This document shows, in pieces, positions 1 to 6,193 of a stretch of DNA of 6,193 nt; positions within the stretch are counted from its first letter, which is position 1, and each line of letters opens with the position of its first letter. Location: the IMG/VR virus record IMGVR_UViG_2778261502_000008, one strand, 5' to 3'. The stretch is from a virus. Taxonomy: Duplodnaviria > Heunggongvirae > Uroviricota > Caudoviricetes. A program made the translations under genes and the position numbers. The notes beneath the pieces were generated by a model, which had not been told where the DNA came from, ran no database searches, and saw only the letters and a program-made list of their open reading frames with translations.

Positions 1-1572
1 GCTGACGTCATATTCCAGACAGCCACGGCGGATAACGTCTTTTGCCTTGAGCACCATTGCGGTTTTCATTTCCGGCGTGTAGCGGATATCGCGAGCGGCG
101 GGATAGAACGAGCGCACGAGCTGGAACACACCGACACCGAGGCCGGTGGCATCAATCCCGATGTATTCGACGTTGTATTTTTCGGTGAGTTTGCGGATGG
201 ATTCTGCCTGGGTGGCAAAGTCCATGCCTTTCCACTGGTGACGCTCAAGGATCCTGAATTTGCCACCGGCCACCACCGGCGGTGCCAGCACCACGCATCC
301 GGCGCTGTCGCCACGGTGTGACGGGTCGTAACCAATCCATACCGGGCGGGAGCCGAACGGATTTGCGGCAAACGGCGCATAGTCTTCCCATTCTTCCAGC
401 GTGTCGACCATACAGCGTTGCAGCTCCTCGAACGGGAACACCGACGCCTTGTCGTCAACAAATTCACACATGAACAGGTTTTTAAAATCATCGGCGCTGT
501 TTTCGCGTTTGAGCTGCTCAATGTCGAACAGCGTGCAGCCGCCTTTCAGGGCGTCCTCAATGGTGACAATCTGCCGCCACTGGCCGTCCGCACAGAGAAG
601 CCCCCCGGCAAGGGCGTTATGACTGACGTCGATTTCCACGCGTTCGGCGGCGCTGGCGCGTCCCCGGTTGAACAGTTCACCCGACCAGAACGGGTAGGCG
701 TCGTGCGCCAGCGTGGACGGGGTGGAGAAATAGGTCGAGCGCAGGTGGCTCTGTGAGGCCATACCTGATGCCACCTTACGCAGCACCTGAAAATTCGGGA
801 TCCAGAAAATCTCATCGACGTACAGGTCGCCGTTATGGCTCTGTGCGGTGTTGGAGTTGGTGCCGAGAAAAATCAGTTTTGCACCGTTATTGCCCAGGAC
901 AATCGGGTCACCGGTCAGGTCAACGTCAACCAGCCGGGCAAAGGCGATGATGTATTCACGGAACACATACGCCTGCGTTTTACTGGCCGACAGAAAAATC
1001 TGGTTATGACCGGTTTTCAGGGCGCGCAGCAGCGCCTCGCGGGAAAAATAAAACGTCGCGCCAATCTGGCGGGATTTCAGAATATCGCGGATGCGGTGCT
1101 CAAGCCCGGCGCGATACCAGTGCAACTGATATTCGAAAGACTGCTCAAAGAAAATCTGCTCCAGCTTTTCGATGGCCTCGTCACTGAAAAAATTCTTTTT
1201 CGGTTTGCGACGCCCGCCTTTGTTGCGGTTAGCGACGTTCGGATTAAGGTCTGCCTCGTTGCCGGTCTGACTGTAACGGTTTACCCGTGCCAGTCGTTCA
1301 ATCTGGCGTCCCAGCAGGTCAATTTCCTTGAAGTCACCGCCGGTTTTCTGCGGTTTGATGATGAGCTGAGTCAGCCGCGCTTCCAGACTCATTTCGACAC
1401 GGCTGATGGGGGCAACGCTGTCCCAGCCGTCGCGCTGTTTCCAGCTCTGCACCGTCGGGCGTTTCATCTGCAACATGGCGGCAATCTGCGGTACGGAAAA
1501 CCCCTGCCAGTACAGCAGCGCCGCCTGACGACGCGGGTCGTGTAAAAGAGTGGTGTCTGTGGTGATGGTCAT
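1..1572 (-). CDS. P: Phage terminase large (ATPase) subunit, P2 gpP-like; N-terminus at 1572, 3' end runs off the window start (partial, 524 codons visible)
   Basis: Hand translation of the minus strand from ATG (reverse complement of 1570-1572) gives an uninterrupted frame to position 1: MTITTDTTLLHDPRRQAALLYWQGFSVPQIAAMLQMKRPTVQSWKQRDGWDSVAPISRVEMSLEARLTQLIIKPQKTGGDFKEIDLLGRQIERLARVNRYSQTGNEADLNPNVANRNKGGRRKPKKNFFSDEAIEKLEQIFFEQSFEYQLHWYRAGLEHRIRDILKSRQIGATFYFSREALLRALKTGHNQIFLSASKTQAYVF... with a Walker-B-like hydrophobic-DE motif (LYVDEIFWI). Shine-Dalgarno GGCGAGG lies 5 nt upstream of the ATG on the minus strand. It is absent from the ORF track, presumably because no stop codon falls inside the window. 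The plus-strand ORFs 418..756 and 835..1545 are shadow frames of this gene. Assignment to gpP is from memory of the P2 family. Confidence 0.88.
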   Translation of the reverse strand, partial: MTITTDTTLLHDPRRQAALLYWQGFSVPQIAAMLQMKRPTVQSWKQRDGWDSVAPISRVEMSLEARLTQLIIKPQKTGGDFKEIDLLGRQIERLARVNRYSQTGNEADLNPNVANRNKGGRRKPKKNFFSDEAIEKLEQIFFEQSFEYQLHWYRAGLEHRIRDILKSRQIGATFYFSREALLRALKTGHNQIFLSASKTQAYVFREYIIAFARLVDVDLTGDPIVLGNNGAKLIFLGTNSNTAQSHNGDLYVDEIFWIPNFQVLRKVASGMASQSHLRSTYFSTPSTLAHDAYPFWSGELFNRGRASAAERVEIDVSHNALAGGLLCADGQWRQIVTIEDALKGGCTLFDIEQLKRENSADDFKNLFMCEFVDDKASVFPFEELQRCMVDTLEEWEDYAPFAANPFGSRPVWIGYDPSHRGDSAGCVVLAPPVVAGGKFRILERHQWKGMDFATQAESIRKLTEKYNVEYIGIDATGLGVGVFQLVRSFYPAARDIRYTPEMKTAMVLKAKDVIRRGCLEYDVS

Positions 1573-1581
1573 GAATACCTC

Positions 1582-1600
1582 GCCGTGATGAATACACGGC
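1582..1600. repeat. Short inverted repeat GCCGTG-N7-CACGGC inside the 34-bp gap between the divergent P and FI starts
   Basis: Read directly: 1582-1587 gccgtg, 7-nt spacer atgaata, 1595-1600 cacggc, which is the exact reverse complement. It sits at or beside the inferred deletion junction. Function unknown. Confidence 0.35.
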
Positions 1601-1606
1601 AAACCG

Positions 1607-2656
1607 GTGCTGATTACCAATGTGCAGAGTGCAATTGCAAAGGCCGGTAAAAAAGGCACGCTGGCGGCATCGTTGCAGGCCATCGCCGACCAGTCAAAAC
1701 CGGTCACCGTTGTCGTGCGCGTGGAAGACGGCACTGGTGATGACGAGGAAACGAAACTCGCGCAGACCGTTTCCAATATCATCGGCACCACCGACGAAAA
1801 CGGTCAGTACACCGGACTAAAAGCCCTGCTGGCGGCGGAGTCGGTAACCGGTGTTAAACCGCGTATTCTCGGTGTGCCGGGACTGGACACCAAAGAGGTG
1901 GCTGTTGCACTGGCATCAGTCTGTCAGAAGCTGCGCGCTTTCGGGTATATCAGCGCATGGGGCTGTAAAACCATTTCCGAGGTGAAAGCCTACCGCCAGA
2001 ATTTCAGCCAGCGTGAGCTGATGGTCATCTGGCCGGATTTCCTCGCATGGGATACGGTCACCAGTACCACCTCCACCGCGTATGCCACCGCCCGTGCGCT
2101 GGGTCTGCGCGCTAAAATCGACCAGGAGCAGGGCTGGCATAAAACGCTGTCCAACGTCGGGGTGAACGGTGTTACCGGCATCAGCGCATCTGTATTCTGG
2201 GATTTGCAGGAGTCCGGCACCGATGCTGACCTGCTGAACGAGGCAGGCGTCACAACGCTGATTCGCCGCGACGGTTTCCGCTTCTGGGGTAACCGTACCT
2301 GCTCTGATGACCCGCTGTTCCTCTTTGAAAACTACACCCGCACCGCGCAGGTGCTGGCCGACACGATGGCTGAGGCGCACATGTGGGCGGTGGACAAGCC
2401 CATCACCGCAACGCTGATTCGCGACATCGTTGACGGCATCAATGCCAAATTCCGTGAGCTGAAAACAAATGGCTATATCGTGGATGCGACCTGCTGGTTC
2501 AGCGAAGAATCCAACGATGCGGAAACCCTCAAGGCCGGAAAACTGTATATCGACTACGACTATACCCCGGTGCCTCCTCTTGAAAACCTGACCCTGCGCC
2601 AGCGTATTACCGATAAATACCTGGCAAATCTGGTCACCTCGGTTAACAGCAATTAA
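1607..2656 (+). CDS. FI: Contractile tail sheath protein, P2 gpFI-like, apparently N-terminally truncated (GTG start, no convincing RBS)
   Basis: 349-aa ORF beginning at GTG 1607, sequence (V/M)[41 protein letters not shown]...[11 protein letters not shown], which I recognise as tail sheath. An in-frame TGA at 1589-1591 sits 18 nt upstream, so the frame cannot extend further. P2 FI is about 396 aa as I recall, and this ORF begins at an internal position of that protein (around residue 45-50). There is no Shine-Dalgarno before 1607. It may be annotated as a CDS or as a pseudogene. Confidence 0.8.
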
Positions 2657-2668
2657 GGAGCCTGACCG

Positions 2669-3187
2669 ATGGCAATGCCGCGCAAACTCAAGTTAATGAA
2701 CGTCTTTCTGAACGGCTACAGCTATCAGGGCGTTGCAAAGTCCGTCACGCTGCCAAAACTGACCCGTAAGCTCGAAAACTATCGCGGTGCGGGGATGAAC
2801 GGCAGCGCACCGGTAGACCTCGGCCTTGATGACGATGCGCTGTCAATGGAGTGGTCGCTCGGTGGCTTCCCGGATTCGGTTATCTGGGAGCTTTACGCCG
2901 CAACCGGTGTGGATGCCGTGCCGATTCGTTTTGCAGGCTCTTACCAGCGCGACGATACCGGCGAAACGGTGGCCGTCGAAGTGGTCATGCGTGGACGTCA
3001 GAAAGAAATCGACACCGGCGAGGGTAAACAGGGAGAAGACACCGAGTCGAAAATCTCCGTGGTCTGCACCTATTTCCGGCTGACGATGGACGGCAAGGAG
3101 CTGGTCGAAATCGACACCATCAACATGATTGAGAAGGTGAACGGCGTCGACCGGCTGGAGCAACACCGCCGAAATATCGGCCTGTGA
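2669..3187 (+). CDS. FII: Tail tube protein, P2 gpFII-like (172 aa), apparently intact
   Basis: ATG at 2669 preceded by AGGAG-type RBS (ggag at 2657-2660) immediately after the FI stop (taa 2654-2656). Protein MAMPRKLKLMNVFLNGYSYQGVAKSVTLPKLTRKLENYRGAGMNGSAPVDLGLDDDALSMEWSLGG... matches my recollection of P2-family major tail tube. The sheath-then-tube order is canonical. Confidence 0.9.
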   Translation: MAMPRKLKLMNVFLNGYSYQGVAKSVTLPKLTRKLENYRGAGMNGSAPVDLGLDDDALSMEWSLGGFPDSVIWELYAATGVDAVPIRFAGSYQRDDTGETVAVEVVMRGRQKEIDTGEGKQGEDTESKISVVCTYFRLTMDGKELVEIDTINMIEKVNGVDRLEQHRRNIGL

Positions 3188-3194
3188 TTTTCAT

Positions 3195-3215
3195 CCGGTC
3201 AGCCTGGCTGACCGG
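3195..3215 (+). other. GC-rich stem-loop (8-bp stem, 5-nt loop) just downstream of the FII stop; no U-tract
   Basis: Read directly: ccggtcag (3195-3202), cctgg (3203-3207), ctgaccgg (3208-3215). It begins 8 nt after the FII stop codon (tga 3185-3187). The following sequence is ttaaccctg, not a T-run, so this is not a canonical intrinsic terminator. It could be an mRNA stability or attenuation element between the abundant tube gene and the downstream genes. Confidence 0.45.
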
Positions 3216-3243
3216 TTAACCCTGATTCAGAAGTGAGAAAACC

Positions 3244-3300
3244 ATGAACAAAGAAAATGTGATTACCCTGGACAAACACAAAAATCACTGCGCGAGCTGA
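3244..3300 (+). pseudogene. E: Remnant of tail assembly chaperone gene E (gpE-like): about 10 native codons, then out-of-frame sequence and a stop after 18 codons
   Basis: ATG at 3244 with upstream purine-rich RBS (aagtgagaaaacc). Translation is MNKENVITLDKHKNHCAS*. MNKENVITLD matches the gpE N-terminus as I recall it; the rest does not look like a chaperone, and the programmed-frameshift E/E' region is absent. Consistent with a deletion breakpoint near 3270-3280. Confidence 0.5.
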
Positions 3301-3353
3301 ACGGTCACGCATCCCGTATTGAGGGATTTCGCAAGACCAGCGCACAGCTCGCC

Positions 3354-4730
3354 GTGACTGGTCATGCACTTGAAAAGGCACGGCAGGAGGCCGAAGCCCT
3401 TGCCACACAGTTTAAAAACACTGAACGTCCGACCCGTGCTCAGGCGAAAGTGCTGGAATCCGCAAAGCGTGCGGCGGAGGACTTACAGGCGAAATATAAC
3501 CGCCTGACAGATTCCGTTAAACGCCAGCAGCGGGAACTGGCCGCTGTGGGAATTAATACCCGCAATCTTGCACATGATGAGCAGGGACTGAAAAACCGTA
3601 TCAGTGAAACCACCGCACAGCTTAACCGTCAGCGTGATGCGCTGGCGCGTGTCAGTGCGCAACAGGCAAAACTTAACGCAGTAAAACAGCGTTATCAGGC
3701 CGGAAAGGAACTGGCCGGAAATATGGCCTCGGTGGGCGCTGCCGGTGTGGGGATTGCGGCGGCGGGAACGATGGCCGGAGTTAAGCTGCTGATGCCCGGT
3801 TATGAGTTTGCGCAGAAAAACTCAGAATTGCAGGCCGTGCTCGGAGTGGCAAAAGACTCCGCCGAAATGACCGCACTACGCAAACAGGCGCGCCAGCTCG
3901 GCGACAATACCGCCGCCTCGGCGGATGATGCGGCCGGTGCACAGATAATCATCGCGAAAGCGGGTGGGGATGTTGATGCCATTCAGGCGGCAACGCCGGT
4001 CACGCTGAATATGGCGCTGGCGAACCGCCGCACGATGGAAGAAAACGCCGCCCTGCTGATGGGGATGAAATCCGCCTTTCAGCTTTCAAACGATAAGGTC
4101 GCTCATATCGGGGATGTTCTCTCCATGACGATGAACAAAACCGCCGCCGATTTTGACGGCATGAGCGATGCGCTGACCTATGCCGCACCTGTGGCAAAAA
4201 ATGCCGGTGTCAGCATTGAAGAAACCGCCGCAATGGTCGGGGCGCTGCATGATGCAAAAATCACAGGCTCAATGGCGGGGACGGGAAGCCGTGCCGTGTT
4301 AAGCCGCCTGCAGGCACCGACGGGAAAAGCATGGGATGCACTCAAAGAGCTTGGCGTGAAAACCTCAGACAGCAAGGGAAACACCCGGCCAATATTTACC
4401 ATTCTGAAAGAAATGCAGGCCAGTTTTGAGAAAAACCGGCTCGGTACTGCCCAGCAGGCTGAATACATGAAAACTATTTTCGGGGAGGAGGCCAGCTCAG
4501 CCGCCGCCGTGCTGATGACTGCCGCCTCAACCGGAAAGCTGGACAAACTGACCGCTGCGTTTAAAGCCTCAGACGGGAAGACCGCCGAGCTGGTAAATAT
4601 CATGCAGGACACCCGCGTTGATGAATCACTGGCCGCGCTTTATGGCGATATCGGTAAACAGGCGGAGTCGCTCATCGGTAAGGCTGGCAGTATGGCGACC
4701 AGATTCACGGGTATGACGGGGGCGGGATAA
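3354..4730 (+). CDS. T: Tail tape measure protein (gpT-like), truncated: lacks a credible start, is about half the expected length, and its C-terminal ~39 aa appear to derive from tail protein gpU (in-frame T'-'U fusion)
   Basis: The track ORF begins at GTG 3354, but the same frame is open back to a TGA at 3234-3236 with no ATG, which suggests a missing N-terminus. The body carries a typical tape-measure core: a Gly/Ala-rich hydrophobic segment (GNMASVGAAGVGIAAAGTMAGVKLL) and a helical Ala/Gln/Lys-rich region. It is 458 aa against roughly 815 aa for P2 gpT (from memory). The ORF ends ...ELVNIMQD | TRVDESLAALYGDIGKQAESLIGKAGSMATRFTGMTGAG*, and its stop overlaps the D start (ataATG) in the way the U/D junction normally does. 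Confidence 0.72.
   Translation: MTGHALEKARQEAEALATQFKNTERPTRAQAKVLESAKRAAEDLQAKYNRLTDSVKRQQRELAAVGINTRNLAHDEQGLKNRISETTAQLNRQRDALARVSAQQAKLNAVKQRYQAGKELAGNMASVGAAGVGIAAAGTMAGVKLLMPGYEFAQKNSELQAVLGVAKDSAEMTALRKQARQLGDNTAASADDAAGAQIIIAKAGGDVDAIQAATPVTLNMALANRRTMEENAALLMGMKSAFQLSNDKVAHIGDVLSMTMNKTAADFDGMSDALTYAAPVAKNAGVSIEETAAMVGALHDAKITGSMAGTGSRAVLSRLQAPTGKAWDALKELGVKTSDSKGNTRPIFTILKEMQASFEKNRLGTAQQAEYMKTIFGEEASSAAAVLMTAASTGKLDKLTAAFKASDGKTAELVNIMQDTRVDESLAALYGDIGKQAESLIGKAGSMATRFTGMTGAG
4611..4730 (+). pseudogene. U: Probable 3'-terminal remnant of tail gene U (gpU-like), fused in frame to the truncated tape measure ORF
   Basis: The last 39 codons of the 3354..4730 ORF (TRVDESLAALYGDIGKQAESLIGKAGSMATRFTGMTGAG) resemble the C-terminus of P2-family gpU as I recall it. 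No separate ~160-aa U ORF exists between T and D. The 4-nt stop/start overlap with D (taATG at 4728-4732) is the expected U-D coupling. Confidence 0.45.
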
Positions 4731-5893
4731 TGCTGGATACGCTGACATTTGATGCAGGCAGTACGCTGACGCCGGATTACATGCTGATGCTCGACAGCAG
4801 GGATATTACCGGCAATATCAGCGACCGTCTGATGAGTATGACCCTGACGGATAACCGGGGCTTTGAGGCTGACCAGCTTGATATTGAACTGAACGATGCC
4901 GACGGGCAGGTCGGGCTGCCGGTTCGTGGCGCTGTCCTGACGGTGTATATCGGCTGGAAAGGTTTTGCCCTGGTATGCAAAGGGAAATTTACCGTTGATG
5001 AGGTTGAACACCGGGGCGCACCGGATGTGGCCACCATCCGCGCCCGGAGTGCAGATTTTCGCGGGACGCTCAATTCCCGCCGGGAAGGCTCCTGGCATGA
5101 CACCACGCTCGGTGCGATTGTTGAGGCGATAGCCACCCGTAACAGGCTGGAAGCCAGTGTCGCTCCGTCACTGGCCGGAATTAAAATCCCGCACATCGAC
5201 CAGTCGCAGGAGTCTGATGCAAAATTCCTGACCCGCCTTGCTGAACGCAACGGCGGTGAGGTGTCGGTAAAAATGGGAAAACTGTTGTTTCTCAAAGCGG
5301 GGCAGGGGGTGACGTCCAGCGGTAAAAAAATCCCGCAGATTACCATCACCCGCAGCGACGGCGACCGTCATCATTTTGCGATTGCTGACCGTGGAGCCTA
5401 TACCGGCGTAACGGCGAAGTGGCTTCACACCAAAGACCCGAAGCCGCAAAAGCAGAAGGTAAAACTGAAACGCAAAAAGAAAGAAAAACACCTGCGCGCA
5501 CTGGAGCACCCGAAAGCGAAACCGGTCACGCAGAAGAAAGCGCCAAAAGTACCGGAAGCGCGCGAAGGTGAATACATGGCCGGTGAGGCTGACAACGTTT
5601 TTGCCCTGACCACGGTATATGCCACGAAAGCACAGGCCATGCGTGCCGCTCAGGCGAAGTGGGATAAACTGCAACGGGGCGTTGCGGAGTTCTCCATCAG
5701 CCTGGCTACCGGTCGTGCAGATATTTACACGGAAACGCCGGTCAAAGTGTCAGGCTTTAAGCGTGTCATAGACGAGCAGGACTGGACAATCACTAAGGTG
5801 ACACATTTTCTGAATAATAGCGGCTTCACGACGTCCTTGGAGCTTGAGGTCAGGCTTTCTGATGTGGAGTACGAAACAGAAGGTAATGAGTGA
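4730..5893 (+). CDS. D: Phage late control gene D protein (gpD-like baseplate hub, gp27/VgrG-like family), 387 aa, apparently intact
   Basis: ATG at 4730 overlapping the upstream stop. 387 aa, the length I recall for P2 gpD. Family-typical motifs are present: MLDTLTFDAG..., GFEADQLDIELNDADGQ, FTVDEVEHRGAPD, SWHDTTLGAIVEAIA, ESDAKFLTRLAE. Position immediately upstream of ogr is canonical. Confidence 0.9.
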   Translation: MLDTLTFDAGSTLTPDYMLMLDSRDITGNISDRLMSMTLTDNRGFEADQLDIELNDADGQVGLPVRGAVLTVYIGWKGFALVCKGKFTVDEVEHRGAPDVATIRARSADFRGTLNSRREGSWHDTTLGAIVEAIATRNRLEASVAPSLAGIKIPHIDQSQESDAKFLTRLAERNGGEVSVKMGKLLFLKAGQGVTSSGKKIPQITITRSDGDRHHFAIADRGAYTGVTAKWLHTKDPKPQKQKVKLKRKKKEKHLRALEHPKAKPVTQKKAPKVPEAREGEYMAGEADNVFALTTVYATKAQAMRAAQAKWDKLQRGVAEFSISLATGRADIYTETPVKVSGFKRVIDEQDWTITKVTHFLNNSGFTTSLELEVRLSDVEYETEGNE

Positions 5894-5911
5894 TGCGTTT
5901 TATTTATCTGT

Positions 5912-5940
5912 TTGTTTTATAAGGACAAATTAACTAAAAT
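5912..5940 (+). promoter_or_regulatory. Candidate sigma70 promoter for ogr: TTGTTT (-35), 17-bp spacer, TAAAAT (-10)
   Basis: Read directly: ttgttt at 5912-5917, 17-nt spacer 5918-5934, taaaat at 5935-5940, in the AT-rich D-ogr intergenic region. Predicted start near 5947-5949. A purine-rich SD (ggaagagg, 5959-5966) precedes ATG 5975. Confidence 0.5.
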
Positions 5941-5974
5941 GACACCATTAACAAAACCGGAAGAGGTGCTCGCG

Positions 5975-6193
5975 ATGTTTCATTGTCCTTTATGCCAGCA
6001 TGCCGCACATGCGCGTACAAGCCGCTATATCACTGACACGACAAAAGAGCGTTATCACCAGTGTCAGAACGTGAATTGCAGCGCCACGTTCATCACCTAT
6101 GAGTCGGTACAGAGATACATCGTGAAGCCGGGAGAAGTCCACGCCGTAAGGCCGCACCCGTTGCCGTCAGGGCAGCAAATTATGTGGATGTGA
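5975..6193 (+). CDS. ogr: Ogr-family zinc-finger late transcription activator (P2 Ogr / E. coli OgrK-like), 72 aa
   Basis: ATG at 5975 to TGA 6191-6193. Protein MFHCPLCQHAAHARTSRYITDTTKERYHQCQNVNCSATFITYESVQRYIVKPGEVHAVRPHPLPSGQQIMWM has the C-x2-C...C-x4-C zinc-finger arrangement and matches Ogr as I recall it. The track ORF from 5912 is a TTG-initiated upstream extension that overlaps the predicted promoter and is unlikely to be real. Confidence 0.9.
   Translation: MFHCPLCQHAAHARTSRYITDTTKERYHQCQNVNCSATFITYESVQRYIVKPGEVHAVRPHPLPSGQQIMWM

Follow-up and report, generated by a model that had tools for sequence, protein, structure and literature searches.

The 3' end of a stretch of phage DNA of 6,193 nucleotides (hereafter the window, meaning the whole stretch analysed) very probably holds a canonical P2 ogr unit belonging to a recently deleted P2-like prophage next to fieF and pfkA, a unit whose survival would be explained by its position and by lack of time. 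Ogr, a C4 zinc-finger activator of P2 late promoters, binds inverted repeats near position -55 of these promoters and activates them via the alpha subunit of RNA polymerase (PMC3152322, PMC3931495), and both Ogr and P4 delta promote P2 and P4 late genes (PMC8628076). A preliminary description of this DNA, made from its letters and open reading frames, rightly named Ogr as the activator of P2 late promoters, but it also had the satellite phage P4 use Ogr on the late genes of its helper, for which P4 employs its own delta (PMC8628076). The unit in the window (5894-6193) consists of a sigma-70 promoter of weak consensus (Pogr), a leader of about 28 nt with a Shine-Dalgarno sequence, and a gene of 72 codons. 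A functional ogr in a cryptic P2 remnant is known, textbook P2 biology, with precedents in ogrK of Escherichia coli K-12 and in the remnant of E. coli B.

The ogr coding sequence occupies positions 5975-6193 of the plus strand, from an ATG at 5975 to a TGA that ends at 6193, and encodes 72 amino acids. This open reading frame matches the Pfam family PF04606 (Ogr_Delta) over the full length of the profile (positions 1-47 of 47; E = 1.1e-21; 76.9 bits, the cut-off for a match being 26.3 bits). Its product is identical to P2 Ogr at 72 of 72 residues, the two genes differing in their codons by six synonymous and no nonsynonymous changes, and is likewise identical throughout (72/72) to the RefSeq protein WP_000468308.1, named 'OgrK'; the Pfam match and the identity to P2 Ogr together confirm the earlier claim that ogr is intact. 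The zinc-ligand cysteines C4, C7, C30 and C35 are all present in the translation, in the spacing CX2CX22CX4C by which the zinc site of Ogr/Delta is defined (PMC3931495), and none of the ligand mutations that the preliminary description had proposed as a check on the gene is found. The stop codon (6191-6193) is TGA in the window and in the prophage of E. coli ATCC 8739, and TAA in P2, K-12, B and AF44. An extended reading frame of 93 amino acids, beginning at a TTG at 5912 (5912-6193), was dismissed as a mechanical artefact because its start codon would fall within the -35 hexamer of the ogr promoter. A similar extended frame of 99 codons is annotated as a 'hypothetical protein' at the ogr of phage vB_EcoM-12474II (334-633 of the compared locus), and this too is an annotation artefact. 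A scan of the window against Rfam found no RNA family.

The window corresponds, at 100% identity, to bases 3-6195 of contig NLUV01000023.1 (66.8 kb; assembly GCA_002233275.1), which starts inside gene P, two bases before the window, so that the remainder of P, gene Q and the early and immunity region lie beyond its end. On the 3' side of ogr the contig continues with a strong rho-independent hairpin terminator (-21.6 kcal/mol, z = -3.0) and, beyond it, with Int-arm-type repeats homologous to those of P2 and then the genes fieF, pfkA, sbp, cdh and tpiA; the gene order D-ogr-terminator-att is the same as in P2. This chromosomal flank is collinear with its counterpart in E. coli ATCC 8739 at about 99% identity, which identifies the host as E. 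coli or a very near relative. Part of the element also occurs on a second contig: a fusion protein encoded in the window (T'-U', see below) is found on a 3,979-bp Logan contig from sequencing run SRR3957146, equivalent to positions 1789-5767 of the window.

Upstream of ogr, the window carries two intact P2 genes and several fragments. The minus strand (1-1572) holds the N-terminal 524 codons of gene P, the terminase large subunit (Pfam Terminase_5/6N/6C), truncated where the window and the contig begin. Next to it lies a 30-bp remnant of the P-O intergenic region (1573-1602), in which the transcription start of the P operon is kept and the -10 and -35 elements and the activator site are gone. 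The remaining genes lie on the plus strand: the tail-sheath gene FI (1603-2656), which according to its alignment to P2 and ATCC 8739 lacks its first 135 nt together with the promoter pF; the intact tail-tube gene FII (2669-3187; 172 aa; Pfam Phage_tube, 2.3e-60; 100% identical to ATCC 8739); and an 18-codon stub of gene E (3244-3300), comprising the first 32 nt of E and losing its frame at a deletion junction (3275/3276). Next comes an in-frame T'-U' fusion of 458 codons (3354-4730; Pfam PhageMin_Tail), in which a segment from within the tape-measure gene T is joined, at about 4610-4614, to the last 39 or so codons of U, so that the frame ends on the U stop codon. The last gene before ogr, which it adjoins directly on the upstream side, is the intact baseplate-hub gene D (4730-5893; 387 aa; Pfam Phage_GPD), 100% identical to that of the ATCC 8739 prophage.

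Three deletions account for this arrangement, each defined here by comparison with E. coli ATCC 8739, whose P2-like prophage is intact and sits at the same position in the chromosome. The first (after position 1602; 13,385 bp) begins 30 bp before the P start codon and takes away everything up to and including the first 135 nt of FI; the second (3275/3276; 497 bp) took out the greater part of E/E' along with the beginning of T; and the third (about 4610-4614; 1,371 bp) deprived T of its end and U of most of its length. In blast alignments, window 1601-3275 equals positions 20001-21675 of the ATCC 8739 prophage locus, where the FI coding sequence spans 19866-21056, and at the third junction the alignment splits into two pieces (window 3274-4614 and 4610-6193). 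The bases shared at junctions 1, 2 and 3 number two, two and about four to five, respectively, and such microhomology of 2-5 bp is the signature of illegitimate recombination. An exact-pattern scan of the species-representative genomes of GTDB returned no match to the first junction.

All four of the Ogr-dependent late promoters (pP, pO, pV and pF) are absent from the visible element. In the P2 reference, the P start codon lies at 2993, the transcription start of the P operon 23 nt upstream of it at 3016, and the activator site, a single one that serves both pP and pO, at 3057-3087. The window follows P2 only as far as 3023, so that the transcription start and 7 bp beyond it are left, and the -10 and -35 elements of pP are lost together with the activator site that it shares with pO. 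The promoter pV lies inside the first deletion, and pF is gone along with its annotated activator site. A search of both strands of the window for the Ogr-type dyad TGT-N12-ACA gave no site, against 1.3 expected by chance. In the preliminary description, the late promoters of O and FI were said to appear deleted, which holds: the pP/pO activator site and pF both fall in the 13,385 bp that are missing. The accompanying statement that the prophage had lost "most" of its late promoters was right as to the loss and understated its extent. The three deletions have also taken most of the structural genes: with O through G and the start of FI missing, as well as E/E' and parts of T and U, the element is no longer able to make virions and is a cryptic remnant.

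Decay of this kind must have been recent. Outside the deletions, window 1601-6193 differs from the ATCC 8739 prophage by one mismatch in about 4.6 kb, as against 86 mismatches in about 8.5 kb (approximately 1%) for the chromosome to the right of the element. Two ordinary, distinct E. coli lineages have thus recently acquired essentially the same phage, and the deletions are younger still. The fragment of P is 98.9% identical to the P gene of ATCC 8739, with 18 evenly spread mismatches, and is a different allele, as expected from normal mosaicism, the parental phage having been a mosaic of two P2-like lineages. A chimeric assembly was dismissed as the source of the diverged P allele, the mismatches being evenly spread with no single switch point. 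Under the favoured reading, ogr would have survived as a 219-bp gene beside attR, outside all three deletions, with hardly any point mutation since. Of the explanations offered in the preliminary description for the presence of ogr, that of a remnant not yet decayed is therefore preferred, because there is a single mismatch to the intact prophage over these 4.6 kb. Three separate deletions in an otherwise nearly unchanged sequence make the locus a record of prophage decay at a very early stage, and an unusually clean one.

The promoter of ogr lies in the 81-nt spacer between D and ogr (5894-5974). Its -35 hexamer TTGTTT (5912-5917) and, after 17 nt, its -10 hexamer TAAAAT (5935-5940), both on the plus strand, match the minus_35_signal and minus_10_signal of the P2 record AF063097: transferred by 1775 nt, the difference between the positions of the ogr start codon in the two sequences, the annotated signals (7687-7689 and 7710-7716 of the locus) map to window 5912-5914 and 5935-5941. 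On the same strand, a Shine-Dalgarno sequence, GAGGTG, can be read at 5963-5968, its GAGG (5963-5966) standing 8 nt before the ATG. Pogr agrees with the sigma-70 consensus at only 8 of 12 positions (3/6 in the -35 and 5/6 in the -10 hexamer), on account of which it is absent from the list produced by a sigma-70 scan of the window; and a site that is its equal occurs at least once in 41% of composition-matched shuffles of 5894-5974. What makes Pogr credible is instead its conservation among relatives and its coincidence with the annotated promoter of P2. In an alignment of eight sequences (the window, P2, K-12, E. coli B, Wphi, two more P2-like phages and the Salmonella phage FSL SP-004, the last 79% identical overall), the -10 hexamer, the 17-nt spacing and GAGGTG are invariant, and the -35 hexamer is the same in seven, being TTGTTA in FSL SP-004, while the spacer and the flanks vary, so that the hexamers and their spacing are more conserved than the non-coding sequence around them. 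The "good" promoter pair TTGTTT-N17-TAAAAT of the preliminary description is accordingly in the right place, as a conserved and annotated P2 promoter, although its 8/12 match is insignificant on sequence alone; the Shine-Dalgarno sequence that was also described there is present and invariant in the aligned relatives.

Two sites resembling LexA boxes, scored against CTGT-N8-ACAG, were noted at the ogr unit: CTGTTTGTTTTATAAG at 5908-5923, with two mismatches and overlapping the -35 hexamer of Pogr, and CTATGAGTCGGTACAG at 6097-6112, with one mismatch and lying within ogr. K-12 ogrK has been listed with a 'potential SOS box' (PMC6590174). The window as a whole contains 31 LexA-like matches, the mean of shuffled sequences being 22.3 (sd 4.1), and 5 of 200 shuffles reach 31. 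With one to two mismatches in the sites near ogr, and with that many shuffles equalling the total count, regulation of ogr by LexA is unsupported.

Comparison with known P2-like elements places the locus among familiar ones. P2 itself (ogr and Pogr at 23973-24254 of AF063097) shares with the window the complete Ogr sequence, the positions of the -35 TTG and the -10 TAAAAT(G), the 17-nt spacing and the Shine-Dalgarno sequence, as well as the neighbours of ogr (D upstream, terminator and att downstream). It differs by the six synonymous substitutions, the stop codon (TAA instead of TGA) and a few changes in the spacer and the upstream leader; and, unlike in P2, the late read-through route of ogr expression is lost from the window with the deletion of pF. 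The K-12 remnant (ogrK/yegZ) likewise has an intact ogr with identical promoter hexamers and none of the late promoters, but it is reduced to 213 nt of D plus ogr, lies at another site, next to yegQ/trhP, and carries the substitution A57V, whereas the much younger remnant in the window retains P', FI', FII, T'-U' and D. The prophage of E. coli B is, like that of the window, multiply deleted, with head genes lost, tail genes truncated and an identical Ogr (WP_000468308.1). In contrast to the window, it has no P, but its FI is intact, the baseplate and fibre genes V-W-J-I-H are still in place, and the sequences in front of V and FI are also kept, from which we judge that it probably retains pV and pF; its deletions are other ones and its integration site is different (on the yegQ/trhP side). 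The ATCC 8739 prophage shares the fieF/pfkA site, the attR junction and, apart from the deletions, all but one base of 1601-6193, but it is complete from Q to ogr, has all four late promoter regions and differs by 1.1% in its P allele.

Some further features of these relatives were observed in passing. E. coli AF44 carries an independent deletion that has fused O' to FI' (9746-11108 of its locus), with both the gpO and the tail-sheath gene truncated; this has cost the prophage N through G together with pV and pF, and pP/pO, the tail genes and ogr are kept. It seems that large head-to-sheath deletions have arisen repeatedly in such prophages. A variable cargo region of P2-like phages lies between the replication gene A and the portal gene Q: it holds a cytosine methyltransferase and a ParB-like gene in ATCC 8739 (304-3356 of its locus), two reverse transcriptases with a retron Ec48 effector in AF44 (2749-6738), and an ABC-three-component system in E. 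coli B (1-2888).

How the remnant may work can be proposed from P2 biology. As pF is deleted, ogr can be transcribed from Pogr only, which probably gives a low, constitutive supply of Ogr; and as all the late promoters are deleted, Ogr has no targets in cis, so that any activity must be in trans. Possible targets would be late promoters with a TGT-N12-ACA dyad in a P2-like phage or P4-like satellite, whether newly arriving or resident in the same cell, and from its 72/72 identity to P2 Ogr we infer that the protein would activate promoters of this type. A trans-acting resident Ogr in this strain is therewith plausible, by analogy with other remnants: Slettan et al. reportedly found in 1992 that, in K-12 and in B, transcription of the cryptic ogr is constitutive and P2 deleted for ogr can grow, and are also said to have described the A57V substitution of the K-12 protein, which was seen in the present comparison as well. 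Trans-acting Ogr being already established for the K-12 and B remnants, the suggestion of the preliminary description that a resident Ogr could affect the late genes of incoming phages or satellites was right and is not new. The output may be modest: Birkeland et al. are reported to have found in 1991 that Pogr is low in P2 lysogens and that transcription of the prophage ogr is stimulated by infecting P2, and the Ogr output of the remnant could therefore be small.

Alternatively, ogr might be intact and yet silent, Pogr requiring an early function of P2, or the gene depending on read-through from pF, both of which are absent, with no meaningful Ogr as the result. In favour of this speak the stimulation by infecting P2, the 8/12 match of Pogr, with its poor -35 hexamer, and the loss of pF, given that the terminator in AF063097 is annotated as 'terminator for ogr transcript and F operon', which points to late co-transcription of ogr. 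We nevertheless consider such silence unlikely, given the constitutive transcription and the complementation that Slettan et al. are said to have seen with the K-12 and B copies. Moreover, the K-12 ogrK-yegZ spacer, whose promoter hexamers are identical to those of the window, was bound in genomic SELEX by the RpoD holoenzyme alone, without any added factor (PMC3946193), and ogrK mRNA has been detected and measured in K-12 MG1655 (PMC5811628).

Another explanation for the presence of ogr is that it has been kept by selection, co-opted, for example, for supporting or triggering P4-like satellites, for mistiming the late genes of superinfecting P2-like phages, or for the regulation of host genes. 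The frequency of ogr lends this idea some appeal. When probes of 300-421 nt were compared with 5,426 complete E. coli genomes, ogr with its promoter was the most often retained piece of P2 (2,074 genomes matched), ahead of the 5' part of D (1,589), FII (1,561) and the pP/pO region (1,511); about 500 of the 5,426 genomes have ogr without the neighbouring P2 genes. In K-12, moreover, only D' and ogrK were kept, with the promoter hexamers intact and with three synonymous as against one nonsynonymous change from the ogr of the window, and an ogrK deletion mutant of the Keio collection shows a modest growth difference under glutathione (PMC5811628). The excess of some 500 genomes is, however, phylogenetically dependent: K-12 and B, with their derivatives, are heavily represented among complete genomes, so that it is not a count of independent events. 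A gene of 219 bp at attR is also expected to outlast internal deletions by position alone, and no Ogr-type dyad is left in the window. Most directly, the FI' and T'-U' fragments, which are useless, are as free of point mutations as ogr, and the intactness of ogr at this locus therefore says nothing about selection. Retention by selection is accordingly, in our view, distinctly unlikely, and we hold a stronger version of it to be more doubtful still, namely that the stripping of the Ogr-dependent promoters and of the lysis and head genes, with ogr spared, reflects selection for a constitutive supply of Ogr. Were that version true, the supply could either activate resident P4-like satellites in trans or act as a decoy, upsetting the late-gene timing of superinfecting P2-like phages, and the ogr-only remnants would be domesticated regulators and not debris. 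Nothing in the present data supports selected ogr-only remnants, which are a residual possibility.

That the deletions are an artefact of assembly, in a draft genome with more than one P2-like prophage in which the real locus is an intact prophage, is highly improbable: the source contig does end inside P, the Logan contig does break at window 1789 and 5767 (in FI and D), in conserved P2 genes, as it would with a second similar copy, and P is diverged from ATCC 8739 where the rest of the element is not, but junctions 2 and 3 are found base for base in two assemblies, the NCBI contig and the Logan contig, all three junctions join unrelated sequence via 2-5 shared bp, which misjoins by k-mer overlap cannot do, and the mismatches in P show no switch at one point. 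The contig ends in conserved P2 sequence (P in the one case, FI and D in the other) hint that the genome may hold a second P2-like prophage, which, if real, would provide late promoters for the resident Ogr to act on in trans.

We thus return to a canonical ogr unit, most probably spared by position and by lack of time, in a P2-like prophage that has only begun to decay. For the biology of P2-like elements, the locus offers a tidy picture of prophage decay at an early, datable stage and is otherwise a matter of correct annotation. A strain of this kind would probably complement an ogr-defective P2, as K-12 and B do, and, as with the copies of those two strains, its resident ogr could conceal ogr phenotypes when phages or satellites are studied in it.
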